This document shows, piece after piece, positions 1 through 50,597 of a stretch of DNA of 64,000 nt. The position numbers and the translations under genes were made by a program. Below the pieces are notes generated by a model. It did no database searches. It had not been told where the DNA came from and worked only from the letters and a program-made list of their open reading frames with translations. Source of the stretch: Patescibacteria group bacterium. Its GTDB lineage: Bacteria; Patescibacteriota; Patescibacteriia; Patescibacteriales; UBA12465. Position 1 is the stretch's first letter. Each line of letters opens with the position of its first letter. The DNA is taken from assembly GCA_041651095.1 (NCBI GenBank), contig JBAZJV010000001.1, positions 147,835 to 211,834 on the forward strand, written 5' to 3'.

Positions 1-17
1 TACACTGTGGGTCTAAA

Positions 18-770: not shown

Positions 771-771
771 T

Positions 772-1773
772 ATGAAAAAACTTACAAAAATATTACTAGA
801 TAAAAGTCACGAAAGTTTTTTGCTCGCACTTGAATTATTTAATAAACCTACAAGTGGATATAGAGTTGAATCATTTTGTTTGCTATTTAGTAACGCATGG
901 GAGTTGGCACTTAAAGCTTATATCTTCGAAAGTAATAATGGGAGTAAAAAAAGCATATTTATGAAGAAGAAAAGGCGTGAGAAGAGAAAAACAATAACTC
1001 TTGATCAATCTTTATCAAATGTTTTTGAGGAAAATAATCCAGTAAGAAAAAATATTGAATTCGTATCAGAATTAAGAAATGAAGCGGCCCACTTAATAAT
1101 TGAAGAAATGGAACCATATTTTTCTCGTGTTTTCCAAAGCGGTGTAATTAACTACATAGAATTTATTAATGAAAAATTCTCGATTGATATCATTGAAAGA
1201 TTAAATCCTGGATTTATAAGTCTTGTAAGCCAAGAAAAAGATATAAAAAATATAGGACTGTTAAAACAAAAATTAGCAAAAGAAGATCTAAATAATATAA
1301 AATCATGGCTGGACCGTTTTCAAGAGTTGGAAAATATGGGGCATAAAGCGGCCATACCTCTAACTTATAAAGTTGCTATAGTAAATAACCCAGAGCATGC
1401 AGATATAACTTTGTCTAATAGTAAAGTTGGCAATACTGGAAATGTTATGGCAGGGATTATTATAGAAAAAACAAAAGATAGAGATTTAACTCATCCCCAC
1501 ACTGCTAATGAAGCGTTGGCTGAGGTTAATCGTCGCTTAAATATCAGCCCTGTTTTATCAAGTTATGACTTCCAAGCCTATTGTTATTATAAAAATGTTA
1601 AAAAGACAAAAAAGAATGATTTGTTTTGGCATGCTAAACACTCAACTCCAACTTATTCTGATAAGTTTATTGATCAAATGACTAATTATTTTACTGAACA
1701 CTCAGATCAAAGAAATACAATGCGGAGTAAATACAAAAGCTATCTGAGAAGCAAAAACCCTAGAAAGAAATAA
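772..1773 (+). CDS. hypothetical protein; N-terminal helical region resembles a DUF3644-type domain (recollection only)
   Basis: 333-aa ORF. The N-terminus SHESFLLALELFNKP..YRVESFCLLFSNAWELALKAYI matches the signature I associate with DUF3644. The gene is tightly packed with its neighbours. Confidence 0.5.
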   Translation: MKKLTKILLDKSHESFLLALELFNKPTSGYRVESFCLLFSNAWELALKAYIFESNNGSKKSIFMKKKRREKRKTITLDQSLSNVFEENNPVRKNIEFVSELRNEAAHLIIEEMEPYFSRVFQSGVINYIEFINEKFSIDIIERLNPGFISLVSQEKDIKNIGLLKQKLAKEDLNNIKSWLDRFQELENMGHKAAIPLTYKVAIVNNPEHADITLSNSKVGNTGNVMAGIIIEKTKDRDLTHPHTANEALAEVNRRLNISPVLSSYDFQAYCYYKNVKKTKKNDLFWHAKHSTPTYSDKFIDQMTNYFTEHSDQRNTMRSKYKSYLRSKNPRKK

Positions 1774-1777
1774 AAAT

Positions 1778-1975
1778 ATGAGACGAAGACTTAGCTACAA
1801 ACAAAGAATAAATATTGGAAGACTTTCATGGTGGATCATGTTTTTAACTGGTGGTTCTCTAATCTGGAAATTTGTTAGTAACAACTATATTGCTGGCAGT
1901 TTAGTTTTTGTGTGGGGTTCTTTTGTTTATTTAATTAATCCCTATCTCTTAAAAGAGTTGCGTGTGTGGAAATAA
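1778..1975 (+). CDS. small membrane protein
   Basis: 65-aa ORF with two hydrophobic segments (LSWWIMFLTGGSLIW, IAGSLVFVWGSFVYLI). It starts 4 nt after the previous stop. Confidence 0.4.
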   Translation: MRRRLSYKQRINIGRLSWWIMFLTGGSLIWKFVSNNYIAGSLVFVWGSFVYLINPYLLKELRVWK

Positions 1976-1976
1976 T

Positions 1977-2162
1977 ATGAACAAAAAATTACTTATCATT
2001 TTAATTATATTCGCCATTTTATTTGGAGTGTTCTTGTTTATCTTCGGCGGATATGATGACAGTCCTGGAGCACAACTATTAGGTTTATTATTAGTTGTTA
2101 TTGGTATTGTTTTCATTTTTAAATTAAAAAAATATGATTTTCGAAAATCAATCAAAAAATAA
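1977..2162 (+). CDS. small two-TM membrane protein
   Basis: The ATG at 1977 lies 1 nt after the previous stop; the track start at 1962 is a GTG extension. Sequence MNKKLLIILIIFAILFGVFLFIFGG...LLGLLLVVIGIVFIF. Confidence 0.45.
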   Translation: MNKKLLIILIIFAILFGVFLFIFGGYDDSPGAQLLGLLLVVIGIVFIFKLKKYDFRKSIKK

Positions 2163-3348
2163 GAAAGTTTTGTTTATTATTTCTCTCATTATTTTAATAG
2201 TTGGAATTTCAGCTTTGTTGTATCTACCAGTCATTTTTCAAGAAGGCAATCCTTGGCCGCAGATAAAAGGAATAACCCAATTGAATTTTACAGGTAAAGA
2301 CATGGTAAAGTTATCTAGTGAAGAAAACAGATACATGACCAAGAGTAAAAATGGTGTTGAGGTTATTAAGGAATACATGAAAAATAAGGGGTATAATTTT
2401 ACCGAACAAATGGGTTCAGGTTATCTTTTTCAATCCACAACAGGAGAAAGTGCCGTTGCCACACATAAATATTACAGCCGATTTTATTCACTTTGGAAAA
2501 TAACAGAAAATACAAATAATACAGAAAATAATAATGATCTATGGACGACAGCAACTGTTGGCGATGGCATAACATTTCAATATCCAAAGGAACTATTGGC
2601 AAAATATATTAGTGAAATAGAATGGCCGCCACAGTTAAAAATAGAAGACAAGTTATTTGCTTGTAATCCGTCTGATAACGAAATTCAACAGGGCAGTCAA
2701 ACTGAACTGCGTTTAGTAGACAGCCGATCATATTGTGTGACTAAGGAAAGTGAGGGTGCGGCTGGTAGTATGTATACTGCTTACACTTATACTTTTCCAA
2801 AAGATAACAAAACAGGAGTTATCACTTTTGCTTTACGCTTTGTTCAGTGCCAAAATTACGACGAACCAAAAGCGTCAGAGTGTGAAAACGAACGATCTGC
2901 TTTTGATATAGATGGCACTATAGATAGAATTGCTCAAAGTATTAAAATGAAATCCGAACAATTATCCATCGCCGAAGAATTAAAAGATTGTTTGCCAAAA
3001 AGTGATACTGCCAGTCATGAAAAATGCAATGAGCTTTTAGCTACAATTAGAAACTTTGATGATTGTGTTAATGCTGGTTTTACTATAATGAAATCAAATC
3101 CACCTCAATGTGCTACTCCCGATGGTAGATCCTTTACTGACGAAACCAATAGTACTTGGGATGTAGTCTTAACAAGTCTTAATAACTGTGAAGTTGAAAG
3201 CGTCTTTCAAACTCATAGTAAATTAGTGACTCTTAAACTCAAAAATGGTAATAAGGTTACAGCTTACGAACCCCAAATTGATGATGTAATGAAGGTGGTC
3301 GCTGATTTAAAGGGTAAGTGTGGCGATATCCGAATGGCTACTGAGTAG
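2134..3348 (+). CDS. membrane-anchored Cys-containing protein, paralog of 15924..16700 with a ~145-aa central insertion
   Basis: 404 aa with an N-terminal TM. The blocks FQEGNPWPQIKGI, GYNFTEQMGSGYLF and C-terminal CLPKSD..CNELLATIRNFDDC..PPQCATPDGRSFTDETN..GKCGDIRMATE align with the 258-aa ORF at 15924. Confidence 0.7.
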   Translation: MIFENQSKNKKVLFIISLIILIVGISALLYLPVIFQEGNPWPQIKGITQLNFTGKDMVKLSSEENRYMTKSKNGVEVIKEYMKNKGYNFTEQMGSGYLFQSTTGESAVATHKYYSRFYSLWKITENTNNTENNNDLWTTATVGDGITFQYPKELLAKYISEIEWPPQLKIEDKLFACNPSDNEIQQGSQTELRLVDSRSYCVTKESEGAAGSMYTAYTYTFPKDNKTGVITFALRFVQCQNYDEPKASECENERSAFDIDGTIDRIAQSIKMKSEQLSIAEELKDCLPKSDTASHEKCNELLATIRNFDDCVNAGFTIMKSNPPQCATPDGRSFTDETNSTWDVVLTSLNNCEVESVFQTHSKLVTLKLKNGNKVTAYEPQIDDVMKVVADLKGKCGDIRMATE

Positions 3349-3546
3349 TGAGACATAAGACAATACCTCCATAAGTGTCCCACGTGTCCTGTCCCACATC
3401 AAAACCCCAGTATTTTAGCCTTTTACTTAATTGGGGTGGGACACAGACCCCGACCCACATACCTCAATTCGTCCCCTGGACAAATCGCTCAAAAACCCTT
3501 ATACTGATTGTAATTCTGGGTTACTTAACCCGAGTAGCCCGCCAGC

Positions 3547-3577
3547 AAAAAAGACCCAAAATGCTTTGGTCTTTTTT
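3547..3577. terminator. hairpin flanked by an A-run and a T-run (bidirectional-type intrinsic terminator)
   Basis: AAAAAAGACCCAAA-ATGC-TTTGGTCTTTTTT: about 11 bp of stem with one bulge, sited in the non-coding stretch after the 2134..3348 gene. Confidence 0.55.
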
Positions 3578-3823
3578 GTTAATATTGAATTTTTTTGGGG
3601 GGGGCGAAAGGCGATGCGCAGTTGTGCGCCGCCGAGCCCGGGTAGCGCAATCTTTCCTTCTCCACAGTATAAAATAAAATATCCTTTGGGGGTGTTTATT
3701 TTACATCTGGAGAGATAATAGGGATGAGAACCCATAGGGTTCGCCCGGGCAACGAGTGACGCGGCTCAAGCGCCACGAGGCGGGAATCCTTACCTGGCTA
3801 TCTTGTTATTTAGCTTAACTTAA

Positions 3824-3851
3824 TAAAAAAGCTCTACGTAAAATGTAGAGC
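3824..3851 (-). terminator. Rho-independent terminator of the 3874..4392 gene
   Basis: Perfect 7-bp stem GCTCTAC/GTAGAGC (3831-3837/3845-3851) with a 7-nt loop. On the minus strand it is followed by a T-run (plus-strand AAAAAAA 3824-3830). Confidence 0.7.
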
Positions 3852-3873
3852 TTCCAACAATTACTTAAGTTAA

Positions 3874-4392
3874 CTATTTAATTTTAGACAAATCAGATCC
3901 ATCTAAATATTCCACTGAAAGTAATTGGCCATAAGTTTCCCCAGTGCAGGCTTTTATTTGATAACTTGGTTTTTTAGCGCCGCTAGGGAATAAATTAATA
4001 ACCAAGTCATAAAATCTCTTATCATTAGCTTTAATATCCTTTAGATGCTCCTTAATATGTGGCGGCATATGGCTGTTATCAGGATGTTGGTGATAAGAAA
4101 TGATAGCTTGAGCCCTCACGGTTTTACAAATTGTAGTATAATCCTCCGGGCTAATATGCTCTGGGTTAGGCAACATTCGGTTAATATTTTCTGCAATACC
4201 AGTATGGGATTGTAGAAAGGAAGATATAGTTATTTTTTTTATGACCGTTGCCGTGATAAGTGCATGTAGCAATATTTCTGGCAAAAGAATAATGAGTTGA
4301 TAGCCAGGACTGTACAGCACCTCGTACTCCTTGCTTATCAGTTTGCGAAGTTTGGCATCCTGATAAATGCTCCATTTTTTTAATTTGATCAT
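3874..4392 (-). CDS. hypothetical protein
   Basis: 172-aa ORF with a terminator immediately downstream and an AT-rich promoter region upstream. I recognise no family motif. Confidence 0.55.
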   Translation of the reverse strand: MIKLKKWSIYQDAKLRKLISKEYEVLYSPGYQLIILLPEILLHALITATVIKKITISSFLQSHTGIAENINRMLPNPEHISPEDYTTICKTVRAQAIISYHQHPDNSHMPPHIKEHLKDIKANDKRFYDLVINLFPSGAKKPSYQIKACTGETYGQLLSVEYLDGSDLSKIK

Positions 4393-4892: not shown

Positions 4893-6599
4893 ATGACAGC
4901 CTTTACTTTCAAGATCGGCGGACGGGCCGGGGCCGGCATCACTTCGGCTGGCCTGACCTTTGCCAAGGTCGCGACCCGTTCCGGTTATCATATTTTCGAC
5001 TATTTAGAATATCCTTCTCTTATCCGCGGCGGGCATAACGTCATGCAGACGACCGTCGCCGATGAGCCGATAGGCGCTACTTCTTCAGCGACTGATTTTT
5101 TAGTGGCGCTCAATCAGGAAACCGTTGACCGGCATATCACTGAATTATCGCCTGATGGCATCCTGCTTTATGATGCTGATGAAAAGATCACGGTCGGCCA
5201 GTTGCCGGCCGGTGCCGCCGCCCTCGGCCTGCCTCTGCATAGTTTGTCCAAGCGCAGCAGCGCCAGCATCGCCGCAATCAATACCGTGGCTTTGGGCGCG
5301 ACTTTATATCTCTTAGGCGGAGAATTGAAGATTTTGCAGGATTTGCTGAGTGATCAGTTTGCTAAAAAAGGGCAGAAAGTCCAGCAAAATAATATTGATG
5401 CCGCGGCTATAGGATTCGAATATGCTCAGGATAATTTTGCTGCGCATGTTGCTCCAAGGCTGTCCAAGCGAAAGAAATCCGCGCCGCAAATAGTCATTAA
5501 CGGCAATGAAGCGGCGGCTCTCGGATCAATCGCGGCCGGCTTGCAATTCGCGGCCATCTATCCGATGACCCCGACCTCCCAGATCTTGGAGGTCCTGGCC
5601 CCGCTGCAAGAGGAATTCGGCTTTATTTATAAGCAGCCGGAGGACGAGATTGCCGCTATTAATATGGCGATTGGCGCTTCGTTCGCCGGCGCCCGCTCCA
5701 TGACCGCCACTTCCGGCGGCGGTTTCTGTCTGATGACCGAAGGTTTTGGTTTGGCCGGCATGACGGAAACGCCGGTCGTGATCATCGTCGGACAGCGTCC
5801 GGGTCCGGCCACCGGTTTGCCGACCTGGACCGAACAAGGCGACCTGCGTTTCGTGCTGCACGCGCATCAGGGCGATTTCCCGCGCCTGGTGCTGGCCCCC
5901 GGCGACGTTACCGAAACTTTTGAGTTGACCAGGCAGGCTTTTAATCTGGCGGATAAATATCAGACGCCGGTCATCGTCTTGTTGGATAAGCAGGTTTGCG
6001 AGAGCCATCAGAGCGTGCCGCTTTTTAGCGACGATAAGTATAAGATTGACCGCGGCAAATTCACGATTAAGGCAAATGGTAATTACGAGCGTTATGCTCT
6101 GAGCCCGGACGGGATTTCGCGTCGCGTGCCGGCCGGTTCCGGCGTCCACGTTATCGCCAACTCCGACGAGCACGACAGTTTCGGTTATTCTAACGAAGAA
6201 GCAGCGATCCGCCACCAGCAAGTGGAGAAACGGATGCAGAAATTAGCGACTTGCGAGCGGGAAGACCTGCCGGCGCCGCAACTTTATGGCCCGGCCGAAG
6301 CCGATCTGACCATTGTTGCCTGGGGGAGCAATAAGGGAGCGATCTTGGCGGCCTTAGCCGAGCATCCGCGGGTCAATTTCTTGCATCTGACTTGGCTTAA
6401 TCCTTTTCCGACGGAAGCGGTCGCCAAGATATTGAAAGGAGCCAAACGCGTTTTGAATATTGAAAATAATTATAGCGGTCAGCTGGCCGGCCTGATCGCG
6501 GAAAAGACCGGCCTTATGATTGAACATCAACTATTGAAATACGATGGCCGGCCGTTCTATCCGGCAGAGATTAGCAATAAGATCAAAGAACTATTATGA
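4893..6599 (+). CDS. korA: 2-oxoacid:ferredoxin oxidoreductase, alpha subunit (gamma-type domain fused at the N-terminus); substrate not determinable
   Basis: 568 aa. N-terminal FKIGGRAGAGITSAGLTFAK (gamma-type domain), then INGNEAAALGSIAAGLQFAAIYPMTPTS and TSGGGFCLMTEGFGLAGMTETPVVI (alpha). ATGA overlap with the beta subunit. Confidence 0.9.
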   Translation: MTAFTFKIGGRAGAGITSAGLTFAKVATRSGYHIFDYLEYPSLIRGGHNVMQTTVADEPIGATSSATDFLVALNQETVDRHITELSPDGILLYDADEKITVGQLPAGAAALGLPLHSLSKRSSASIAAINTVALGATLYLLGGELKILQDLLSDQFAKKGQKVQQNNIDAAAIGFEYAQDNFAAHVAPRLSKRKKSAPQIVINGNEAAALGSIAAGLQFAAIYPMTPTSQILEVLAPLQEEFGFIYKQPEDEIAAINMAIGASFAGARSMTATSGGGFCLMTEGFGLAGMTETPVVIIVGQRPGPATGLPTWTEQGDLRFVLHAHQGDFPRLVLAPGDVTETFELTRQAFNLADKYQTPVIVLLDKQVCESHQSVPLFSDDKYKIDRGKFTIKANGNYERYALSPDGISRRVPAGSGVHVIANSDEHDSFGYSNEEAAIRHQQVEKRMQKLATCEREDLPAPQLYGPAEADLTIVAWGSNKGAILAALAEHPRVNFLHLTWLNPFPTEAVAKILKGAKRVLNIENNYSGQLAGLIAEKTGLMIEHQLLKYDGRPFYPAEISNKIKELL

Positions 6600-12672: not shown

Positions 12673-12759
12673 GGAGAGGTGCTAGAGTGGTTTAATAGGA
12701 CAGTCTTGAAAACTGTTGTCGATGCAAGTCGACCCAGGGTTCGAATCCCTGCCTCTCCG
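12673..12759 (+). tRNA. tRNA-Ser (anticodon UGA)
   Basis: Manual cloverleaf fold. Acceptor GGAGAGG/CCTCTCC; D stem CTA/TAG with a GG loop; anticodon stem ACAGT/ACTGT with loop CTTGAAA; long variable arm GTCGA-TGCAAG-TCGAC; T arm CAGGG-TTCGAAT-CCCTG; discriminator G. CCA is not encoded. Confidence 0.95.
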
Positions 12760-12784
12760 CAGAAAGTAAAAATAAATTTCAATT

Positions 12785-26931: not shown

Positions 26932-28743
26932 CTATTGTCTATTCCTGACTTTCTCCTGCACTTCAGCGATGAAACTATCCGGCGCGATTTCCCTGGTGTC
27001 CTGCGCGCCGCGGTCTCTGACGCTTAACACCGGCGCGTTCATTTCCTTGTCGCCGATGACCAGCATATAGGGGACCTTGTCCGCCACGGCTTTGCGGATC
27101 TTATTGCCGACCGTCTCATTGCTGTCATCTATTTCCGCCCGCAGGCCGGCGTCGCGGAATTGCGCCGCCAGTTTCTCGCAGGCCGGGACATGGTTTTCGC
27201 CGACGGAAACGATCTTGATCTGGACCGGCGAGATCCAGACCGGGAAGGCGCCGGCGTAATGTTCTATTAGCAGGCCGATAAATCTTTCGAAGGAGCCGAA
27301 GAGCGCGCGGTGCAGCATGTAGGGGCGCTCCTTTTCACCTTGGGCGTTGGTGAAGTTCATATCGAATCTTTCCGGCAGGTTGAAGTCGAATTGCAATGTT
27401 GAGCACTGCCATTCGCGGCCCAGCGAGTCCTTGACCTTGAAGTCCAGCTTCGGGCCGTAGAAGACGGCGCCGCCGATGTCTTTCTGGTAAGTCAGATGTT
27501 TGGCCTGAGCGACTTTTTCCAGAATCTGCTCGGTAAAGGCCCAGCCGGCGTCGCTGCCCGCGTACTTGTCATTTTCCGGATCGCGGACTGAAAGATAGAC
27601 CTGAACGTCTTCGGTCTTGAAGCCAAAGGAACGGTACATGAACAGGATGAAATCGACGACCCGTGCCAATTCCGCTTCCACCTGGTCGGCCCGGCAGACG
27701 ATATGGGCATCATCCTGGGTAAAGCCGCGGACGCGGGTGAGGCCGGAGAGCTCGCCCTTCTTTTCGAAACGGTAGACCGTACCGCATTCGGCCCAGCGCA
27801 GCGGGAATTCGCGGTAGGAGTGCAGGCGATGCTTGTAAATCTGGACATGGAAGGGGCAGTTCATCGGTTTGAGCAGATAGGCCTCCGGTTCCTTCGCCGC
27901 TTCCTGGTTCTGGTTGGCCGACAGGCTTTGGCCGACTTCAAGCGGCGGATACATGCTGTCGTTATAGAAGCCCCAATGGCCGGAAGTTTCCCAGAGCGCC
28001 TTGTTGCCGATATGCGGCGACCGGACCAGGTCGTAGCCGGCTTTTTCATGTTCGCGATACCAGAAATCTTCGATGAGCCGCCAGAGCTTGGCGCCTTTCG
28101 GGTGCCAGAGCGGCAGGCCGAGGCCGACCATCTCATCGACATGGAAGAGATCCAGCTCCTTGCCCAGCTTGCGGTGGTCCCGTTTTTCCGCTTCCGCCAG
28201 CAATTTCAAATAGTCGTCCAATTCTTCTTTAGTATCGAAAGCCAGGCCGTAGATGCGGGTGAGCATCTTGTTCTTCTCGTCGCCGCGCCAGTAAGCGCCA
28301 GCAAGTTTATCCAGCTTGAAACTGCCGGGCTTTATTTCCTTGGTATTGGTAACATGTCCGCCGCGGCAGAGATCAGTGAATTTGCCGACGGTATAGTAGC
28401 TGACGGTGGTTTCGCCGGCGGCCTTCAGGTCGGCGATAAGTTCAGCCTTGTAAGTTTCGCCGGCCTCCCGGGCGGCCGCGAGGGCCTCGTCTATCGGCTT
28501 CTCACTGCGGATGAAATCCGCATTCTGTTTGGCCAGATGGGCCATCTTCTTTTCTATCTCCCGCAAGTCGGCTTCACTGATCTTAGTCTCACCGAAGTCG
28601 ATATCGTAATAGAAGCCGTTATCGATAACGGGGCCGATGGACAGCTGGGCCTTGGGATATATTTCCAGGACCGCGGCGGCCAAAAGATGCGATAAGGAAT
28701 GGCGCTTGTCGGCCAAGCTGGCCGACGGTTTTTCTTTAGACAT
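26932..28743 (-). CDS. thrS: threonine--tRNA ligase
   Basis: 603 aa from the ATG at 28743; the track start at 28791 is a TTG inside the leader hairpin. Motifs RHSLSHLLAAAV (editing domain), HRKLGKELDLF, RGFTQDDAHIV and FYGPKLDF. Confidence 0.95.
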   Translation of the reverse strand: MSKEKPSASLADKRHSLSHLLAAAVLEIYPKAQLSIGPVIDNGFYYDIDFGETKISEADLREIEKKMAHLAKQNADFIRSEKPIDEALAAAREAGETYKAELIADLKAAGETTVSYYTVGKFTDLCRGGHVTNTKEIKPGSFKLDKLAGAYWRGDEKNKMLTRIYGLAFDTKEELDDYLKLLAEAEKRDHRKLGKELDLFHVDEMVGLGLPLWHPKGAKLWRLIEDFWYREHEKAGYDLVRSPHIGNKALWETSGHWGFYNDSMYPPLEVGQSLSANQNQEAAKEPEAYLLKPMNCPFHVQIYKHRLHSYREFPLRWAECGTVYRFEKKGELSGLTRVRGFTQDDAHIVCRADQVEAELARVVDFILFMYRSFGFKTEDVQVYLSVRDPENDKYAGSDAGWAFTEQILEKVAQAKHLTYQKDIGGAVFYGPKLDFKVKDSLGREWQCSTLQFDFNLPERFDMNFTNAQGEKERPYMLHRALFGSFERFIGLLIEHYAGAFPVWISPVQIKIVSVGENHVPACEKLAAQFRDAGLRAEIDDSNETVGNKIRKAVADKVPYMLVIGDKEMNAPVLSVRDRGAQDTREIAPDSFIAEVQEKVRNRQ

Positions 28744-28971
28744 ATTGTTTAGTTTAATTATATTCCTAATTAAAAAGTCCCCTCCTCGCAAAAACAGCCA
28801 AAGCTGCTTTTGCCAGGACGGGACTTGTCAGGGCTCTTGGCCCGGGGTCTCGCGGTTCCACCCGGCTTTATCCGCCAAATTGGCGGAAACGCTCGTCTGA
28901 TTGTTTGTGCTTTAGGAGCCAGGCTCGCCGGTACTATCCGGCCCGCGTTTGGTAAGCGCGGCAATCAGCAT
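28744..28971 (-). promoter_or_regulatory. T-box-like leader (tRNA-sensing riboswitch candidate) of thrS
   Basis: The minus strand contains AAAGCCGGGTGGAACCGCGAG (plus-strand 28849-28869), matching the conserved T-box GGGTGGnACCGCG core. A Stem-III-position hairpin CCGCCAATTTGGCGG lies just upstream and a long terminator hairpin downstream. Confidence 0.6.
28772..28826 (-). terminator. leader terminator/attenuator hairpin of the thrS leader
   Basis: About 23 bp of stem (AAGTCCCGTCCTGGCAAAAGCAG / CTGTTTTTGCGAGGAGGGGACTT, 2 mismatches) followed by TTTTT on the minus strand. It ends ~28 nt before the thrS ATG. Confidence 0.7.
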
Positions 28972-28977
28972 AAGTAT

Positions 28978-29006
28978 ATTATATGGCAAGCGGGACGATT
29001 TGTAAA
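28978..29006 (-). promoter_or_regulatory. sigma70-type promoter TTTACA-N17-TATAAT for the thrS leader
   Basis: Minus-strand TTTACA (29001-29006), a 17-nt spacer, then TATAAT (28978-28983). Confidence 0.65.
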
Positions 29007-29039: not shown

Positions 29040-29771
29040 TTAGCCTTTAGCCAGAACCAGGCCATAAATTTTTCCGGCTCCGCCCGCCTGCAAAGCTGAC
29101 GCCGCTTCATTCAAGGTCGCGCCGGTAGTTACGACGTCATCTATCAGGATGATTGTTTGCCCGGCGAGCGGCGCACCAGTCCAGACAAAGGCGCCGCGCA
29201 GATTCTGCTGGCGTTCCCGACCCTTTAATTTAGCCTGCACTTCAGTATGCTTGATGCGTCGTAAGCCGGCTAGCAGGGGATAGCCGAAAGCGGCGCCGAG
29301 CTCTCGGGCCAATAGTTCCGCCTGGTTGGAGCCGCGCCAATGGAGGCGCCGTTTAGCCAGCGGCACCGGCGCCAAGACCACCGTTTCCCAGAGATTCCGG
29401 CCCTGGACGGAATTTTCGGCCAAGGCGAGCCGCCCTTGCCAGAACAAGGTCAAAAAGCGTCCCAGCGGTTTAGCCAGCTCGGTCAGAAAATTGTATTTGA
29501 ATTTTTTGATCAGGCGAGAAAGCAGCGGATCTTCATAATCGCCGGCAATGAATAATCCGCTTAGCGCCGGCGCGGCTATTAGCGCCGTTTGCTCGGCGCT
29601 CCGGGGAGTTTTATAGAAACGCAGACGCCTGAAACAATCGGAGCAAAGCGCGGCGTCCTCCCGGCCGCAGCCATAGCAGGCAGCCGGGAACAGCCAGGCG
29701 AGCAAGAATGATCGAAGCAGGCCTAAAGGACGGAACATAATGGCCAAATTAAATTTTTTTAAAATATTCAT
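29040..29771 (-). CDS. comFC: ComF family protein (ComFC-type phosphoribosyltransferase)
   Basis: 243 aa with the N-terminal zinc-finger-like CYGCGREDAALCSDC and the C-terminal PRTase motif ILIDDVVTTGATLNEAA. Confidence 0.85.
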   Translation of the reverse strand: MNILKKFNLAIMFRPLGLLRSFLLAWLFPAACYGCGREDAALCSDCFRRLRFYKTPRSAEQTALIAAPALSGLFIAGDYEDPLLSRLIKKFKYNFLTELAKPLGRFLTLFWQGRLALAENSVQGRNLWETVVLAPVPLAKRRLHWRGSNQAELLARELGAAFGYPLLAGLRRIKHTEVQAKLKGRERQQNLRGAFVWTGAPLAGQTIILIDDVVTTGATLNEAASALQAGGAGKIYGLVLAKG

Positions 29772-43671: not shown

Positions 43672-44272
43672 TATCTTGGCTGCCAAACAACAACGCCTGT
43701 TGCCCTGGCTGAAAGAATTCCGGCCAGATTTCGGTTTGGTCGGCGGCACGGCCTTGGCTTTGCAAATCGGCCACCGCCAGTCGATAGATTTTGATCTGTT
43801 CACTTGCCAAGAATTCGATAACTTAACTCTGCAACGCCGAATCTTCAAAAAAGAAAAAATCAGCAAAATTTTGGTTGACCAGCAAGGCGAGCTAACCGTT
43901 GTAGTCAAGGGCGTTAAAATCACTTTTTTATATTATCCTTTCAAGATCAGCTTTGCCGTGCCTTTGGCGAGCACTATCAAGATGGCGGACATCCTGACCA
44001 TCGCGGCTCTTAAAGCTTACGCCTTAGGGCGCCGGGCCAAGTGGAAAGACTATGTGGATCTATACGTGATTTTAAAAGATTTTTACACTCTACCGGAAAT
44101 AGTTAAAAAAGCCGAACAAATTTTTAAAAATAATTTTAACGAAAAAATCCTGCGAGCCCAGTTGGCTTATTTTAAAGATTTGGATTATTCGGAAAAAGTC
44201 ATTTATCAGCCTGGATACAAGATGGCCGACGCCAGCATCAAGAAATTTTTAACAGCCGTTAGTTTATCATAG
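43661..44272 (+). CDS. nucleotidyltransferase, AbiEii/DUF1814-like (type IV toxin-antitoxin toxin family)
   Basis: 203 aa. FGLVGGTALALQIGHRQSIDFDLFT matches the GGTAL....G.R.S.D.D signature as I recall it. Later AALKAYALGRRAKWKDYVDLY is also present. Confidence 0.55.
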   Translation: MHLDILAAKQQRLLPWLKEFRPDFGLVGGTALALQIGHRQSIDFDLFTCQEFDNLTLQRRIFKKEKISKILVDQQGELTVVVKGVKITFLYYPFKISFAVPLASTIKMADILTIAALKAYALGRRAKWKDYVDLYVILKDFYTLPEIVKKAEQIFKNNFNEKILRAQLAYFKDLDYSEKVIYQPGYKMADASIKKFLTAVSLS

Positions 44273-44285
44273 GCTAATTGTTTTA

Positions 44286-47200
44286 ATGCCCCGATTCTAT
44301 AGTCGGAAAACCGGAATATTACTTTTTGCTTTATTATTAAGCGGCGGTTTTTTGTTATTCTCTAACGCTAAAAACGCCCAAGCCTATCATGCCACTTCCA
44401 GCTATAATAAAACTTTTAACGATACCCTGACTTCCCAGAATTGGAACGACCTGTTCAGCGATTTTGTAAATACCTGGTTGCCGGTTTCTTTGAACGGCCC
44501 GGTCGGCATCGCCACGGGAGCGCCGGCCGCCGGACTGAGCGTCAACGGGCCGGTTAACGCGACCAACCTGTTTACAGGCGGATTGTTCACGACCGGCAAC
44601 GTCGGCGTCGGGACGACCAATCCCGGCTCCAACCTGCATATCGTCGGCAGCTTGGACGCTTCCGGCACGGTAAACGGCACCGGCCTCTGCATCGCCGGCG
44701 TTTGCAAGACCGACTGGAGCGGCGTCGGCGCGACCAGCGGCTGGACGATAAACGGCACGACGGTCTATAAGACGGATACGAACGGGAATGTGGGAGTGGG
44801 GACAACCAACCCCGCAGCGACTCTTAATTTAGAAAGATCAAACGCCGCAGGAGCGCCATCCTTAAGACTTTCATTGTCGGACAGTCCGGCGTCATATAGA
44901 GTAGATCTGAAGGCGCAGTATGACGATGTCACATCACTTGCCTTGCAGCAATCAGGACAGAACATACTGACGGCCGGCCGATCTCCGTCGAAGACTGCCC
45001 TTTATACCTTTAATGGCGGAGGAACTTCAAACGAAAGGATTACAATCCTCGGCAGTTCAGGCAACGTCGGCATCGGGACGACTAACCCCGTCCAAAAGCT
45101 AGCCATAGCCAATGGGCGCTTGTTAGTGGATAATTATAATACTTATTCCGAGGGTTCCATACAGAATAATTTAGCGGAATTTACTTTGCGTACAACGAAC
45201 GGGCCCAATTATTCATCGGTTTATTCTTATCAGACCATTGATTCTAGTAATGGCGGGAGCAATAACGCGCAGGCTAATTGGTTATTAGCTGTAAATAATG
45301 CGACGGCCGGCGACTACCAACTAGGAGGGCTTAGCTTGTACCCCGCTAACTATTGGACCGCGTCCAAGCGTGGTTTGTATGTATATTCCACCAACGTTCC
45401 GATTAAGTTCGCCACCGGCATTGGAGCGCAAAGTTCCAAGCTTTATGGCGCTGATGACGCCAATGTCAAGATGACCATAGATAATAACGGCCGAGTCGGA
45501 ATCGGAACGACGAACCCCGGCAACCAGCTGACGGTAAACGGCCGAGGCGGTTTCAATAACGACCAAGTCACTATCGGCGGCACTTCCGGCTTAGCGGCGG
45601 AAAGAATATATCTAAATTACGATGGCGCCAATACCTTAGGGAGACTTAATGCCATCAGCGGAGTAGGTCTGAGTTTTGGCAGCAACGGAGCGAATGATCG
45701 TCTGGTTATTACCTCTGGCGGCAACATCGGCATCGGGACTACTGCCCCCGGCTCCAATCTCGACGTCGTCGGCAGCATCAACGCTTCCGGCACGGTGAAC
45801 GGCACCGGTCTCTGCATCGGCGGCGACTGCAAAGTCAGCTGGCCAGCCATCATTGCCGCCGGAGGAGGGAATCTTTGGAGCGGCACGACGACCGGAGCGA
45901 TTTGGAATGCGAATTCCGGGGATGTCGGGATCGGGACGACGGCGCCGGGGGCGAGAATAGAAATAAAGGGAAGTGGTAATACGTTTGCTACTACAAATTT
46001 TAGGTTAGCTAATTCAGATAATACAACAATATTCACAGTCCAAGATCATTCCGTGGGTAAGTTTACGGGGCAATTTCAGATTTTAGGTGGAACCGGGACA
46101 AACCAATTATATGTTCAGGATGGGGGGGCATATATTGCCGGCAACGTCGGCATCGGAACCAGCACGCCGACACAACAGCTGGCAGTCGGCGGAAATGGCA
46201 ATATCTGGTTAGCTGGCAGCAACCCGGGTATATTCTTGATGGATACTCCCAGCGCGGACGGGTATGGTTATAGGATTTATAACGATGGCGATTCTATTGT
46301 AGGCAACTTAGTGACTAATGCCGGCGCCGGGGCGACTCAGATATTTGATTTTAAATACGGCAATCCGTCAGTGTATTCATTCACCGGCAATACCGTCAGA
46401 TTTGGCATCGGCACTTCTACGCCGACGGCCAATCTGGAAATCTACCAATATTCCAGCGACGCTGATTTGCTGAAGCTCTCCTCGGCAGGAGGTTCCAGTG
46501 GAGACTTGTTAACCGTAAGAAACAGTGGCAACGTCGGTATCATGAAATCCAGCCCCGGCGCCAACTTAGACGTCGTCGGCAGCATCAACGCCTCCGGCAC
46601 GGTAAACGGCACCGGCCTCTGTATTGGCGGTGACTGCCGTACTTCCTGGGCAGCGGCCGGCGCCTATTGGACCGGCTATGGCAGCGATATAGCCAGCAAT
46701 AACTCCGGTAATGTCGGTGTAGGGACGACAGCCCCTTCCCAGAAGCTTCATGTCGCAGGCGGAGCCTATATAACGCAAAGAACCGGGATTGGCGTTACCC
46801 CTGGCGGCCACGGGTCCATCTTATCTGCTCAACTTGATGGGAGCAACGGGCAGAGAGGTGTAGTGGTTTTCAATAATACAGGCGATACGGACAATGACCA
46901 GCAGTTGTTCGCAGGCCTTAATCATTCCGGCAATTTCACATCTTGGATAAACGGCGCGGGCTCAGCTTACTTCGGCGGCAACGTCGGGATCGGGACAACC
47001 GCTCCTAGTAACAGGTTGCATACGGTTGGTTTTGGATCATATCCAGGTAACTTATCTGAAATTCCGCAGTACTCTCATATAAGGTTTCAACCGCGAAGCG
47101 ATCAGAACGGCTCTCTTTTTATAGCTGGCAATAGCGATTCATCAACCCTTATTATTCAAGGCGCTTTAGACGGAACTACCGCTAGGGCAATTTCATTGAA

Positions 47201-50200
47201 TCCGTACGGCGGCAATGTCGGTGTGGGAGTGATGACTCCGGCGGCTAAGTTACAGGTTGCTGGCGGGCAATTGTATCTAAGCGGGAAGGGGAGTGCCACG
47301 GGACTGACTTTTACTAACCACTCTATTTATCAGGATGCCAATAATATTTTGATCCTTGATTCTTCCGGAAATCAGAATATGGCTTTTATGCCAGGAACGG
47401 GTAATATCGGCATCGCCAAGACAAATCCCAGCTCCAACCTGGATGTCGTCGGCAGCATAAACGCTTCCGGCACCGTGAACGGCACCGGCCTCTGCATCGG
47501 CGGGGACTGTAAAGTTTCTTGGCCGGCCATCATCGCCGCCGGCGGAGGGAACCTCTGGAGCGGCACGACGACCGGGGCGATCTGGAATGCGAATTCCGGG
47601 GATGTCGGGATCGGGACGACGGCGCCGGGGGCGAGAATAGAAATAAAGGGAAGTGGTAATACGTTTGCTACTACAAATTTTAGGTTAGCTAATTCAGATA
47701 ATACAACAATATTCACAGTCCAAGATCATTCCGTGGGTAAGTTTACGGGGCAATTTCAGATTTTAGGTGGAACCGGGACAAACCAATTATATGTTCAGGA
47801 TGGGGGGGCATATATTGCCGGCAACGTCGGCATCGGAACCAGCACGCCGACACAACAGCTGGCAGTCGGCGGAAATGGCAATATCTGGTTAGCTGGCAGC
47901 AACCCGGGTATATTCTTGATGGATACTCCCAGCGCGGACGGGTATGGTTATAGGATTTATAACGATGGCGATTCTATTGTAGGCAACTTAGTGACTAATG
48001 CCGGCGCCGGGGCGACTCAGATATTTGATTTTAAATACGGCAATCCGTCAGTGTATTCATTCACCGGCAATACCGTCAGATTTGGCATCGGCACTTCTAC
48101 GCCGACGGCCAATCTGGAAATCTACCAATATTCCAGCGACGCTGATTTGCTGAAGCTCTCCTCGGCAGGAGGTTCCAGTGGAGACTTGTTAACCGTAAGA
48201 AACAGTGGCAACGTCGGTATCATGAAATCCAGCCCCGGCGCCAACTTAGACGTCGTCGGCAGCATCAACGCCTCCGGCACGGTAAACGGCACCGGCCTCT
48301 GTATTGGCGGTGACTGCCGTACTTCCTGGGCAGCGGCCGGCGCCTATTGGACCGGCTATGGCAGCGATATAGCCAGCAATAACTCCGGTAATGTCGGTGT
48401 AGGGACGACAGCCCCTTCCCAGAAGCTTCATGTCGCAGGCGGAGCCTATATAACGCAAAGAACCGGGATTGGCGTTACCCCTGGCGGCCACGGGTCCATC
48501 TTATCTGCTCAACTTGATGGGAGCAACGGGCAGAGAGGTGTAGTGGTTTTCAATAATACAGGCGATACGGACAATGACCAGCAGTTGTTCGCAGGCCTTA
48601 ATCATTCCGGCAATTTCACATCTTGGATAAACGGCGCGGGCTCAGCTTACTTCGGCGGCAACGTCGGGATCGGGACAACCGCTCCTAGTAACAGGTTGCA
48701 TACGGTTGGTTTTGGATCATATCCAGGTAACTTATCTGAAATTCCGCAGTACTCTCATATAAGGTTTCAACCGCGAAGCGATCAGAACGGCTCTCTTTTT
48801 ATAGCTGGCAATAGCGATTCATCAACCCTTATTATTCAAGGCGCTTTAGACGGAACTACCGCTAGGGCAATTTCATTGAATCCGTACGGCGGCAATGTCG
48901 GTGTGGGAGTGATGACTCCGGCGGCTAAGTTACAGGTTGCTGGCGGGCAATTGTATCTAAGCGGGAAGGGGAGTGCCACGGGACTGACTTTTACTAACCA
49001 CTCTATTTATCAGGATGCCAATAATATTTTGATCCTTGATTCTTCCGGAAATCAGAATATGGCTTTTATGCCAGGAACGGGTAATATCGGCATCGCCAAG
49101 ACAAATCCCAGCTCCAACCTGGATGTCGTCGGCAGCATAAACGCTTCCGGCACCGTGAACGGCACCGGCCTCTGCATCGGCGGGGACTGTAAAGTTTCTT
49201 GGCCGGCCATCATCGCCGCCGGCGGAGGGAACCTCTGGAGCGGCACGACGACCGGGGCGATCTGGAATGCGAATTCTGGCAATGTGGGGATTGGGACGAC
49301 AAACCCTCTTTCTAAATTTGAAATTTATGGTGGAAATCTAAATATACGTAATAATGATAATGGAATAAATGTATTAGGTTTAGGTCTAGCCACATCAGAT
49401 AGCGGCGCACCTGGTGGTGCATATGGTACCTCTTTTATTGTTGGTAACTCTAGCACTGGTTCAGGCCATCCTTCTTCACTTGCGTTCTATACAGAATCTA
49501 GTGGTGCTGTTGGTGAACGAGTACGTATTGATTCCATAGGCAACGTCGGGATCGGGACCACTAGCCCGGCTGGAAAGCTGGAAGTGAGTGGGACGGCAAT
49601 AATAAATAACACCCTGACATTAAATGGCGCTGGTTCGGCAATAGAACAAATTTGGAAGGGGGGCACCTGGTATCACATAAAAGCAAATGCGAGCAATTTG
49701 TTTAATATATTTGAAGATAACTATGAAACTACAAGGAATATTGCTTTAGTGGCCGGAAATGTCGGGGTGGGGACGACAGCGCCTTCTTCAAAGCTGCAGG
49801 TTGGCGCAACGACAGGAAGCAACTTTATTACCTTAGCTGGCGGCGTCACCGGAGCAAGCTATGGTATTGATTGGTCATTTAATAACCCGGGCGTAAATAA
49901 GTATGCCCAAGTTATGTTCTCTTATGATGATAGGTCCACAAAGGGGCTCCAATTCAATATCAATAATGGATATCAGATGTCGTTTAACAGGATCGATACC
50001 GTTGGTACATTCCAAGCTAATTTAATGACAATACTATCGGCCGGCAACGTCGGCATCGCCAAGACTAATCCCGGCACTACACTGGATGTTACTGGCGGTA
50101 TTAACGCTTCCGGCACGGTGAACGGTACGGGTCTCTGCATCGGCGGGGACTGTAAAGTTTCCTGGCCCTCCATCGTTTCGGCCGGCGGCGGCAATCTCTG

Positions 50201-50597
50201 GAGCGGCACGACGACCAGTGCGATTTGGAACGCTAATATCGGCTATAATGTCGGTATCGGGACGACTAATCCGCAGGCCACCCTGCAAGTGGCTGGCGGT
50301 CTGTCATTGAACCGGACGACGGTAGCGGACGCTGACTATACGACCCAGTCTACGGATTACATCATCGGTTATACTACGCTCACCACAAATCGGACAGTTA
50401 CCCTGCCTAATGCTTTATGCACGCCGGGCCGTTTCTTCGTGGTCTTGGATGAAAGCGGCAGCGCTTCGGCCAGCAAGAAGATCATCATTGATCCGGAAGG
50501 CGCGACGACCATCGTCGGCCAACCTACTTTTACGCTCTCCGGCGCCTACAATTCTGTCTACGTTTTCTGTGGCAGTTCGGCTTGGTATGTGTTATAA
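44286..50597 (+). CDS. giant secreted/surface repeat protein, tail-fibre-like
   Basis: 2103 aa with an N-terminal signal/anchor (ILLFALLLSGGFLLF). It has more than 20 G-N-V-G-I-G-T-T-x-P-xxx-L-x-V motifs and 7 two-Cys modules ASGTVNGTGLCIGGDCKxSW. Confidence 0.85.
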   Translation: MPRFYSRKTGILLFALLLSGGFLLFSNAKNAQAYHATSSYNKTFNDTLTSQNWNDLFSDFVNTWLPVSLNGPVGIATGAPAAGLSVNGPVNATNLFTGGLFTTGNVGVGTTNPGSNLHIVGSLDASGTVNGTGLCIAGVCKTDWSGVGATSGWTINGTTVYKTDTNGNVGVGTTNPAATLNLERSNAAGAPSLRLSLSDSPASYRVDLKAQYDDVTSLALQQSGQNILTAGRSPSKTALYTFNGGGTSNERITILGSSGNVGIGTTNPVQKLAIANGRLLVDNYNTYSEGSIQNNLAEFTLRTTNGPNYSSVYSYQTIDSSNGGSNNAQANWLLAVNNATAGDYQLGGLSLYPANYWTASKRGLYVYSTNVPIKFATGIGAQSSKLYGADDANVKMTIDNNGRVGIGTTNPGNQLTVNGRGGFNNDQVTIGGTSGLAAERIYLNYDGANTLGRLNAISGVGLSFGSNGANDRLVITSGGNIGIGTTAPGSNLDVVGSINASGTVNGTGLCIGGDCKVSWPAIIAAGGGNLWSGTTTGAIWNANSGDVGIGTTAPGARIEIKGSGNTFATTNFRLANSDNTTIFTVQDHSVGKFTGQFQILGGTGTNQLYVQDGGAYIAGNVGIGTSTPTQQLAVGGNGNIWLAGSNPGIFLMDTPSADGYGYRIYNDGDSIVGNLVTNAGAGATQIFDFKYGNPSVYSFTGNTVRFGIGTSTPTANLEIYQYSSDADLLKLSSAGGSSGDLLTVRNSGNVGIMKSSPGANLDVVGSINASGTVNGTGLCIGGDCRTSWAAAGAYWTGYGSDIASNNSGNVGVGTTAPSQKLHVAGGAYITQRTGIGVTPGGHGSILSAQLDGSNGQRGVVVFNNTGDTDNDQQLFAGLNHSGNFTSWINGAGSAYFGGNVGIGTTAPSNRLHTVGFGSYPGNLSEIPQYSHIRFQPRSDQNGSLFIAGNSDSSTLIIQGALDGTTARAISLNPYGGNVGVGVMTPAAKLQVAGGQLYLSGKGSATGLTFTNHSIYQDANNILILDSSGNQNMAFMPGTGNIGIAKTNPSSNLDVVGSINASGTVNGTGLCIGGDCKVSWPAIIAAGGGNLWSGTTTGAIWNANSGDVGIGTTAPGARIEIKGSGNTFATTNFRLANSDNTTIFTVQDHSVGKFTGQFQILGGTGTNQLYVQDGGAYIAGNVGIGTSTPTQQLAVGGNGNIWLAGSNPGIFLMDTPSADGYGYRIYNDGDSIVGNLVTNAGAGATQIFDFKYGNPSVYSFTGNTVRFGIGTSTPTANLEIYQYSSDADLLKLSSAGGSSGDLLTVRNSGNVGIMKSSPGANLDVVGSINASGTVNGTGLCIGGDCRTSWAAAGAYWTGYGSDIASNNSGNVGVGTTAPSQKLHVAGGAYITQRTGIGVTPGGHGSILSAQLDGSNGQRGVVVFNNTGDTDNDQQLFAGLNHSGNFTSWINGAGSAYFGGNVGIGTTAPSNRLHTVGFGSYPGNLSEIPQYSHIRFQPRSDQNGSLFIAGNSDSSTLIIQGALDGTTARAISLNPYGGNVGVGVMTPAAKLQVAGGQLYLSGKGSATGLTFTNHSIYQDANNILILDSSGNQNMAFMPGTGNIGIAKTNPSSNLDVVGSINASGTVNGTGLCIGGDCKVSWPAIIAAGGGNLWSGTTTGAIWNANSGNVGIGTTNPLSKFEIYGGNLNIRNNDNGINVLGLGLATSDSGAPGGAYGTSFIVGNSSTGSGHPSSLAFYTESSGAVGERVRIDSIGNVGIGTTSPAGKLEVSGTAIINNTLTLNGAGSAIEQIWKGGTWYHIKANASNLFNIFEDNYETTRNIALVAGNVGVGTTAPSSKLQVGATTGSNFITLAGGVTGASYGIDWSFNNPGVNKYAQVMFSYDDRSTKGLQFNINNGYQMSFNRIDTVGTFQANLMTILSAGNVGIAKTNPGTTLDVTGGINASGTVNGTGLCIGGDCKVSWPSIVSAGGGNLWSGTTTSAIWNANIGYNVGIGTTNPQATLQVAGGLSLNRTTVADADYTTQSTDYIIGYTTLTTNRTVTLPNALCTPGRFFVVLDESGSASASKKIIIDPEGATTIVGQPTFTLSGAYNSVYVFCGSSAWYVL
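45903..49276 (+). repeat. perfect tandem duplication, period 1680 nt (560 codons), ~2.0 copies
   Basis: By line-by-line comparison, bases 45903-47596 are identical to 47583-49276. The flanking partial copy 45720-45902 is only ~80-90 percent similar to 47400-47582. Confidence 0.95.

Follow-up and report, generated by a model that had tools for sequence, protein, structure and literature searches.

T-box riboswitches are targets for antibiotics and a leading model of how RNA recognises RNA. The features with which they sense aminoacylation are a UGGN sequence at the 5′ edge of a 7-nt bulge that ends in ACC, a terminal G·U pair in helix A2, and a Stem III flanked by RRRxG and AA (PMC7583486). 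Transcriptional T-boxes generally need, in addition, a long Stem I with a platform that binds the tRNA elbow, and truncated Stem I's bind tRNA poorly when the Stem II domain is lacking (PMC7583486). The T-box database TBDB was built with the Rfam model RF00230 and a class II model limited to Actinobacteria. Here we analyse the leader of thrS, the gene of threonyl-tRNA synthetase (ThrRS), in a 64 kb stretch of a Patescibacteria genome (contig JBAZJV010000001.1), called the window throughout; leader and gene lie on its minus strand, and leader position 1 is window position 28975. The leader is very probably a T-box-type transcription attenuator that senses tRNA-Thr through a stripped-down decoding domain, an ultrashort Stem I. 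A first-pass annotation of this DNA had already suspected a T-box-like thrS leader with a non-canonical Stem I in a genome of the Candidate Phyla Radiation (CPR), and the suspicion was well founded: the genome belongs to Patescibacteria, the proteins nearest to the window ThrRS are from Patescibacteria (CPR), the discriminator half of the leader covaries and the leader is conserved.

The exact core of the T-box is found just upstream of thrS in four Patescibacteria loci, and more diverged versions occur in others. Metagenomes were scanned with the pattern TGATTG-N11-AA-N{68,98}-GGGTGGNACCGCGAG, in which the triplet of the hairpin-1 loop and the N of UGGN were deliberately left free. The pattern matched 92 places, about 75 of them thrS leaders of this design, all with ACC and UGGA; of the rest, 15 were copies of a canonical Asp T-box, one was a thrS T-box of the canonical type and one a chance match. 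Conservation upstream of thrS, on which the first-pass annotation had made its reading depend, thus extends to more than 75 relatives. Two alignments were analysed, one of 70 distinct Patescibacteria thrS leaders (MAFFT) and a model-based one of 76 that included diverged members. The RNAalifold structure of the 70 leaders contained hairpin 1, Stem III and the terminator, with numerous compensatory changes; the alternative fold with the antiterminator was built by hand, and pair counts were taken over P1, hairpin 1, Stem III, A1 and A2. The architecture is conserved and covaries. In the MAFFT alignment 89.2% of the cells were paired as against 32-43% in controls with slid partners, and covariation was 0.524 as against at most 0.14. 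In the model-based alignment, whose counts lean towards the proposed structure because it was fitted to the model, the values were 91.9% against 35-48%, and 0.605 against at most 0.136. No shuffle reached the observed covariation in either alignment (0/500 each), a control that overstates significance since the leaders are kin, so that the slid partners provide the fairer comparison. The covariance model of the class, R1, found one copy in the window with 132.9 bits, the next best match (20 bits) being the antisense of the terminator.

The discriminator half follows the known T-boxes closely. The T-box core AAAGCCGGGTGGAACCGCGAG (also written AAAGCCGGGUGGAACCGCGAG) lies at 28869..28849 (-), and GGTGGNACCGCG has a single exact occurrence in the 64 kb, its three one-mismatch matches all falling within long open reading frames (ORFs). 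The Stem III hairpin UCCGCCAAUUUGGCGGA is located at 28887..28871, just upstream of the core. Covariation was found at all six pairs of Stem III tested; RRRxG directly precedes the stem in 57/70 leaders under a strict parse, and AA follows it in 70/70. Every one of the 70 leaders has a 7-nt bulge with UGGN at the 5′ edge and ACC at the 3′ end. The bulge UGGAACC is itself invariant in 70/70, though GGTGGNACC was fixed in the scan pattern; the N of UGGN, which had been left free, is A in every junction-type match, and one diverged member (L030) has UGGAAAC. The terminal pair of A2, G28853·U28818 in the window, is G·U in 70/70 leaders (MAFFT) and in 74/76 (model-aligned). Helix A2 contains a conserved AxC mismatch, replaced by A-U in 7 leaders; the C of the mismatch pairs with G in the terminator, and the mismatch should bias the switch towards the OFF fold. 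Judged by its sequence, the discriminator half of the thrS leader has every feature expected of a T-box, and it covaries.

Terminator and antiterminator cannot coexist. The sequence GUCCCGUCCUGGC serves both as the 3′ strand of A2/A1 and as the 5′ strand of the terminator. For the first 165-170 nt of the leader, the antiterminator is the minimum free energy (MFE) structure given by RNAfold, with -20.2 kcal/mol locally, whereas the full-length RNA prefers the terminator (-38 versus -20 kcal/mol locally). From the shared strand and this change of the MFE structure with length it follows that the two folds are mutually exclusive, and the antiterminator pairing involving the T-box sequence that the first-pass annotation had proposed to look for is thereby found. 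The terminator hairpin is G+C-rich and is directly followed by 5-8 U, relatives included; in the window its end lies 28 nt ahead of the thrS AUG, and relatives differ widely in its distance to the ORF. The leader sequence used for folding was ACUUAUGCUGAUUGCCGCGCUUACCAAACGCGGGCCGGAUAGUACCGGCGAGCCUGGCUCCUAAAGCACAAACAAUCAGACGAGCGUUUCCGCCAAUUUGGCGGAUAAAGCCGGGUGGAACCGCGAGACCCCGGGCCAAGAGCCCUGACAAGUCCCGUCCUGGCAAAAGCAGCUUUGGCUGUUUUUGCGAGGAGGGGACUUUUU; the leader folds considerably more stably than shuffled sequences (z = -6.3; 0/200 shuffles as good). The ON and the OFF folds are, respectively:

.....(((......(((((.........)))))(((((......)))))((((...)))).....)))....................(((((((...)))))))....((((((.......(((.(((...((((.....))))......))).)))))))))........................................

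.....(((......(((((.........)))))(((((......)))))((((...)))).....)))....................(((((((...)))))))..............................................(((((.((((.(((((((((((....))))))))))).)))).))))).....

The decoding half has a different construction. Its architecture was obtained by sequence-by-sequence dissection of the leaders and consists, from 5′ to 3′, of helix P1, the strand UGAUUG, hairpins 1 to 3, the strand C-UAAR and the 3′ strand of P1. The three short hairpins that had been read by eye in the 5′ part were confirmed by folding. P1 has 2-7 bp in 70/70 leaders, its three pairs being of the GC/AU/CG/UA/GU types, with 87% pairing in the model-based alignment. The first U of UGAUUG pairs with the R at position 5 of the strand UAAR (U-A 46, U·G 27, and C-G 1, the last in a diverged member); in diverged members C-GAUUG and CUAA-G occur instead. 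Hairpin 1 has 5-6 bp and a terminal loop of 7-9 nt, with heavy covariation in all 5 pairs and 97-98% of the cells paired. A sixth pair is present in about 85% of the sequences and leaves a 7-nt loop, YN-ACC-AA, similar to an anticodon loop. Hairpin 2 varies across the family in sequence, length (3-11 bp) and loop, and contains no conserved loop or internal-loop motif. Hairpin 3 is short (2-7 bp) and carries a GNRA cap in many relatives (closing pair G-C in 51/60; loop GAAA in 11 and GCAA in 5); like that of hairpin 2, its loop is not conserved. A model with hairpins 2 and 3 fits 60/70 leaders, with 8.07 contiguous bp as compared with 1.87 in shuffles. The strands UGAUUG/C-UAAR are reminiscent of box C/D (RUGAUGA/CUGA). 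They differ from a kink-turn (K-turn) in that the 3-nt bulge is missing, U1 and R5 are paired, and the second sheared pair has an A where its G would be.

The triplet exposed in the loop of hairpin 1 matches the gene downstream. Every junction-type match has ACC-A in this loop, although the scan left the triplet free, and thrS follows wherever the gene can be read. ACC is likewise present in the loop of the diverged thrS leaders L013, L015, L017, L030, L003, L004, L012 and L031. The leaders L013 and L017 precede GNAT-thrS and NUDIX-thrS operons, in L015 and L030 the sequences of A2 are changed, and some of L003, L004, L012 and L031 have a K-turn-like base.

Related leaders were found upstream of glyS in two CPR lineages, by a fuzzy search for the T-box core over 1.28 Mb together with R1. 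In L107 and L172/L176 the loop reads AGAUC-GGC-A, and in the Moranbacteria leader L178/L179 a 6-bp hairpin carries the 7-nt loop UU-GGC-AG, in the same register as YN-ACC-AA. The L107/L172 leader is reduced to a hairpin, Stem III and discriminator, followed by the terminator, without the four-way junction; L178 has one hairpin more, and the thrS leaders have the full junction. Bacterial tRNA-Gly has U73 (PMC9976931), and the UGGA bulge of the glyS leaders fits this nucleotide. With ACC at thrS and GGC at glyS, the triplet in the loop changes with the amino acid of the synthetase that is regulated. At the level of sequence, the glyS leaders settle the assignment of the ACC loop as the specifier. 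The two kinds of leader may occur together, since in L185/L186 glyS and thrS are about 5 kb apart, with one leader each. The first-pass annotation had suggested looking for the same leader at other aminoacyl-tRNA synthetase (aaRS) genes. This holds for the related leaders at glyS in the two lineages; the free-triplet scan found the architecture upstream of thrS alone, and the fuzzy core search over 1.28 Mb gave nothing beyond the glyS leaders, canonical T-boxes and chance matches within ORFs.

In the mechanism that we infer for the thrS leader, tRNA binding, charge sensing, transcriptional read-out and the function of the junction would be connected as follows. Transcription would start immediately 5′ of P1. 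The anticodon GGU of tRNA-Thr would pair with ACC, which the terminal loop of hairpin 1, similar to an anticodon loop, displays along with a 3′ purine; this would establish a loop-loop contact. When the tRNA is uncharged, its free 3′ NCCA would pair with UGGA at the bulge's 5′ edge and stack on A1; the purine string of Stem III (GAGCG...AA) and the terminal G·U of A2 would form a steric sieve that rejects aminoacyl-tRNA. Bound tRNA would hold the antiterminator, which is the weaker fold (about -20 kcal/mol), for as long as is needed to block the stronger terminator (about -38 kcal/mol), allowing read-through into thrS, and charged tRNA, or the lack of tRNA, would lead to termination. A four-way junction, made up of P1, UGAUUG/C-UAAR and the hairpins 2 and 3, would stand in for the K-turn, the platform of the long Stem I and the Stem II domain. 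Its role is presumably to set the orientation of hairpin 1 towards the discriminator, and it may contribute to clamping the codon-anticodon duplex.

Several findings weigh against a tRNA-sensing T-box. The Rfam model RF00230, run with Infernal, gave the 216-nt leader 13.6 bits, the gathering threshold being 93, and aligned model positions 159-216 alone; a score below this threshold had been named beforehand as refuting. [quoted passage not shown] For the window sequence, RNAfold picks a 7-bp CUGAUUG/CAAUCAG closure that would bury the invariant junction strand. Most CPR glyS genes have no leader, and the support from Gly comes from two lineages; in four other CPR glyS loci examined no leader was found upstream of the gene, where there is no room for one. 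Finally, a tRNA-Thr gene was found neither in the window nor in about 150 fetched loci, at one window end, or around glyS in two genomes with both leaders. The GGU anticodon and U73 are hence predictions for this lineage. The UGGA bulge predicts U73 in tRNA-Thr; position 73 is not known to be an identity element in bacterial tRNA-Thr, and for that reason U73 cannot be assumed.

The low score has to be read in view of the model that produced it. RF00230 was built on T-boxes with a long Stem I, so a sub-threshold score does not refute the T-box reading, and the piece that it aligned, Stem III and the antiterminator, is the domain that senses the tRNA 3′ end. On a 451-nt region the model gave no match, either at gathering or at E ≤ 10, and no T-box was detected at gathering in 20 fetched loci scanned, most of them labelled Patescibacteria/CPR and eight with the leader. 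Canonical T-boxes, taken as positive controls, reached 127.7 bits (L164, thrS) and 93.9 bits (L092). By score and by Stem I architecture the thrS leader is outside the canonical Rfam family, yet it shares the complete discriminator and codon logic. A search for literature linking T-boxes with CPR, Patescibacteria or Parcubacteria found none, which is weak evidence of novelty given its incomplete coverage; the Patescibacteria thrS class is probably uncatalogued. A further step would be to consider these leaders a separate structural class of transcriptional T-box, in which the anticodon is read by loop-loop contact and the junction is a new RNA module that docks the tRNA or clamps the duplex, replacing the K-turn, the platform and the Stem II-IIA/B domains. 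We advance this extension tentatively, and see its chances as slightly below even.

It could also be thought that the leader is a degenerate T-box relic or a generic attenuator, with a real terminator and antiterminator whose switch is set by a protein or by the speed of RNA polymerase, and not by direct reading of tRNA. The elbow platform, the K-turn and the Stem II domain, the canonical tRNA-docking modules, are indeed absent, tRNA binding by truncated Stem I's is poor when they have no Stem II domain, and B. subtilis thrS needed a protein fraction in vitro (PMC7583486). The codon, its 3′ purine, UGGA, ACC, the G·U sensor pair and the purine string, however, are kept across highly diverged leaders while the stems covary, and the codon of the loop becomes GGC upstream of glyS. 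Since a relic would not keep single-stranded positions invariant, this explanation is unlikely.

The first-pass annotation had considered a T-box with one long irregular Stem I, closed by GCUGAUUG...CAAUCAG, with ACA (within GCACAAAC) as the Thr specifier on the 3′ strand, the arrangement found in canonical specifier loops. The 7-bp closure does exist in the window, where it is part of the RNAfold MFE structure, and ACA is followed by A at 28907..28904. The closure is nevertheless specific to the window: in the 70 relatives, NUGAUUG pairs with the linker no better than with shuffled linkers, and the conserved closure is the 3-bp P1 (UGC/GCA), whose covarying 3′ strand is the GCA of GCACAAAC. 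In the 14 nt that follow P1, 24/70 relatives have ACA and 28/70 any ACN, whereas ACC-A is in the hairpin-1 loop of all of them; the glyS leaders, moreover, place GGC in a hairpin loop. The ACA assignment gives way to ACC at 28953..28951, and a long Stem I is very improbable.

Equally improbable is a ThrRS-binding operator of the kind that autoregulates thrS in E. coli, where a 5′ hairpin mimics the anticodon arm of tRNA-Thr and the synthetase represses its own mRNA. A closing helix with three hairpins gives the 5′ domain a cloverleaf-like outline, and the loop of hairpin 2 in the window, AUAGUA, contains AGU. Hairpin 2, however, is unconserved in sequence, length and loop, and the sole conserved loop displays the codon ACC and not an NGU anticodon. 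The element ends in a terminator about 30 nt ahead of the AUG, with no overlap with the ribosome-binding site, and an operator leaves the invariant T-box bulge, the purine string and the GGC loop at glyS unexplained. A translational T-box with the logic of the actinobacterial class II, in which the alternative helix sequesters the ribosome-binding site, would agree with the fact that the only ultrashort-Stem-I T-boxes described act on translation (PMC7583486), but has hardly any likelihood here, as the alternative helix is a G+C-rich interrupted hairpin with 5-8 U that, ending 28 nt before the AUG and at variable distances from the ORF in relatives, does not cover the start region.

The coordinates of the features that make up the proposed T-box, of its promoter and gene, and of the glyS leaders are as follows.

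Table 1. Position of the elements of the thrS locus in the window, and of the glyS leaders in other CPR loci
Feature	Position	Strand	Description
Sigma-70-type promoter	29006..28978	-	-35 TTTACA 29006..29001, 17-nt spacer, -10 TATAAT 28983..28978; 11/12 match
P1, 5′ strand UGC	28970..28968	-	closing helix of the four-way junction; pairs with 28910..28908
Junction strand UGAUUG	28967..28962	-	invariant in 70/70, though TGATTG was fixed in the scan pattern
Hairpin 1 (ultrashort Stem I)	28961..28943	-	5-bp CCGCG/CGCGG, loop CUU-ACC-AAA
Specifier codon ACC (Thr)	28953..28951	-	in the hairpin-1 terminal loop; the next nucleotide is the conserved purine A28950
Hairpin 2	28942..28927	-	GCCGG-AUAGUA-CCGGC
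Hairpin 3	28926..28916	-	GAGC-CUG-GCUC
Junction strand C-UAAA (consensus C-UAAR)	28915..28911	-	C in 70/70; UAAA 42, UAAG 24, CAAA 3, CAAG 1
P1, 3′ strand GCA	28910..28908	-	the GCA of GCACAAAC
Stem III and purine string	28894..28867	-	GAGCG 28894..28890; Stem III 28889..28869, core UCCGCC/GGCGGA; AA 28868..28867
Antiterminator (ON fold)	28866..28812	-	helices A1 and A2 around the 7-nt bulge
Helix A1	GCCGGG 28866..28861 with CCUGGC 28817..28812	-	97% paired, covaries
T-box bulge UGGAACC, 7 nt	28860..28854	-	directly after A1
Helix A2	GCGAGAC 28853..28847 with GUCCCGU 28824..28818	-	extra small hairpin in the A2 loop
Intrinsic terminator (OFF fold)	28824..28772	-	long interrupted hairpin 28824..28777 and U5 28776..28772; about -38 kcal/mol; stem covaries in 70 sequences
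thrS (threonyl-tRNA synthetase), regulated gene	26932..28743	-	603 aa; Pfam tRNA_SAD, tRNA-synt_2b, HGTP_anticodon; without TGS domain
glyS leaders	L107 7023-7174 (-); L172 8852-9005 (-) = L176 545-698 (+); L178/L179 32-200 (+)		GGC-A loop, UGGA bulge, terminator

The elements that the first-pass annotation had listed, namely a TTTACA-17-TATAAT promoter, a leader of about 230 nt up to the thrS ATG at 28743, the T-box core with its UGGN bulge, a hairpin in the Stem III position and a terminator hairpin with a U-run, are all present in the window, where the core is unique. The promoter score is at least 10/12 in 66/72 relatives, and TTTACA is the -35 element in 54. Transcription in the window is predicted to start near A28971, immediately 5′ of P1; in relatives the -10 hexamer ends mostly 9-19 nt ahead of UGAUUG, so the transcript would begin at P1 in these as well. 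Upstream of the leader (window 29040-29771, -) lies a ComF-like gene with a double zinc ribbon and a phosphoribosyltransferase domain. In 36/70 relatives the ComF-like motif is encoded no more than 400 nt upstream of the leader; comF-thrS synteny is therefore conserved, with promoter and leader placed between the two genes.

Other readings of parts of the leader were discarded. Attenuation by a leader peptide was considered because in the window a 12-codon ORF begins with the AUG at 28971..28969; an AUG close to the 5′ end is present in just 7/70 relatives. A conserved AACAA after the junction, suggested as specifier (ACA+A) by the first five leaders, is found in only 24/70 overall. Pairing in cis of the loop sequence YYACC with the GGUGG of the T-box core is trivially expected, since the Thr anticodon is GGU, and the glyS leaders do not show it. 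The other Rfam matches, miRNA- or snoRNA-like and directed to the terminator hairpin, are spurious.

Some diverged CPR thrS leaders (L003 about 2843-2990, L004 about 2800-2970 and L031 about 2712-2880) have a short ACC-loop hairpin and the UGGAACC bulge, the hairpin resting on a K-turn-like base in L003 and L031. Read by eye, L012, L003 and L031 show a K-turn-like GAU-GA...GA pattern. L003, L004 and L031 have no obvious terminator hairpin; after A1 a conserved AUUUU(U)GGUG or GGGU is followed by a U-run, and the specifier ACCAA has its complement in the UUGGU. In a close relative that has no leader, a weak tRNA call (35.9 bits; L075 2838-2912, -) is located directly upstream of thrS, and ARAGORN calls it a tRNA-Cys with the unusual anticodon ACA.

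The canonical Asp T-box recovered by the scan (RF00230, 93.9 bits) has the specifier region GAA-A-GAC-C and the bulge UGGC. It was found in L084, L088, L092 (4178-4375), L093, L114, L118, L119 (about 5945-6110), L121, L124, L128, L138, L147, L159, L162 and L171. Downstream are a gene with an MshEN domain, a PilT-like ATPase, and then hisS and aspS. It is an ordinary hisS-aspS T-box, unusual solely for the two pilus-type genes between leader and synthetases.

Two further regions of the window were noted. Positions 1-4000 have a low GC content (0.34, as compared with about 0.52 elsewhere), in a region possibly reaching the tRNA-Ser at 12673-12760. The region encodes a DUF3644 protein (772-1773) that occurs on 21 other contigs beside a serine recombinase, ParB-methyltransferases and a phage-type repressor; on one of them the element abuts tRNA-Ser(UGA), the same tRNA as that of the window. 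Positions 1-4000 are probably an integrated mobile element or a prophage remnant. In addition, 46085-46170 and 47765-47850, which are 1680 nt apart, are identical over at least 80 nt. Both lie in an ORF of 2114 aa (44253-50597) followed by one of 1815 aa, and they are long internal repeats of a giant protein.

RF00230 and TBDB would miss the CPR leaders entirely, and CPR/Patescibacteria would seem to be devoid of T-boxes. R1, or the anchored pattern, could annotate such leaders in thousands of CPR genomes. The CPR class contradicts the working generalisation that transcriptional T-boxes need a long Stem I with its platform and that truncated ones need a K-turn, an S-turn in Stem II and a pseudoknot. 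If the leaders were a separate class, a co-transcriptional T-box could work without any elbow contact. Structural studies and the engineering of tRNA sensors would profit from their compact decoding domain of about 60 nt, apparently read co-transcriptionally, as a minimal system. A direct read-out of the charging of tRNA-Thr, and in some lineages also of tRNA-Gly, would be retained by organisms with very reduced genomes.

Among the known systems, the E. coli thrS operator resembles the CPR leader in the gene that is regulated and in the several hairpins of its structured 5′ leader. The operator, however, shows anticodon-like loops to a protein and overlaps the ribosome-binding site, whereas the CPR leader presents a codon, a T-box bulge and a terminator. 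The glyQS T-boxes resemble the CPR glyS leaders in being minimal and without a Stem II domain, those of L107/L172 and L178 being likewise the simplest of their kind; glyQS T-boxes keep a long Stem I with K-turn and platform, whereas the CPR glyS leaders expose GGC in a terminal loop. That the CPR glyS leaders are simpler than those of thrS would parallel the canonical Gly T-boxes, which lack the Stem II domain that others need. The actinobacterial ileS T-boxes of Mycobacterium tuberculosis and Nocardia farcinica (PDB 6UFG and 6UFM, cited in PMC7583486) also have a truncated Stem I without elbow platform, a specifier near the tip of a short stem and a conserved discriminator. They are translational and work through a Shine-Dalgarno sequestrator, for which they need a K-turn, an S-turn with a 5-purine string in Stem II, and a IIA/B pseudoknot. 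In the CPR thrS leader, by contrast, none of these three modules was identified, a terminator with a U-run is present, and the decoding hairpin is enclosed by P1 together with two variable hairpins. The likeness to the canonical class I T-boxes (RF00230; B. subtilis tyrS, thrS and glyQS) extends over RRRxG-Stem III-AA, A1, the 7-nt bulge with UGGN and ACC, A2 with its terminal G·U and the strand shared with the terminator; in both the regulated gene is an aaRS gene, with a codon that matches the aaRS and is followed by a purine. The CPR thrS leader lacks the long Stem I, the IDTM platform and the K-turn consensus of class I. The specifier, which in class I lies in an internal Specifier Loop with an S-turn, is here in a terminal loop. 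The CPR leader further differs in the conserved AxC of A2, in its host phylum Patescibacteria, and in a four-way junction, built of P1, UGAUUG/C-UAAR and three hairpins, that has no counterpart in class I.

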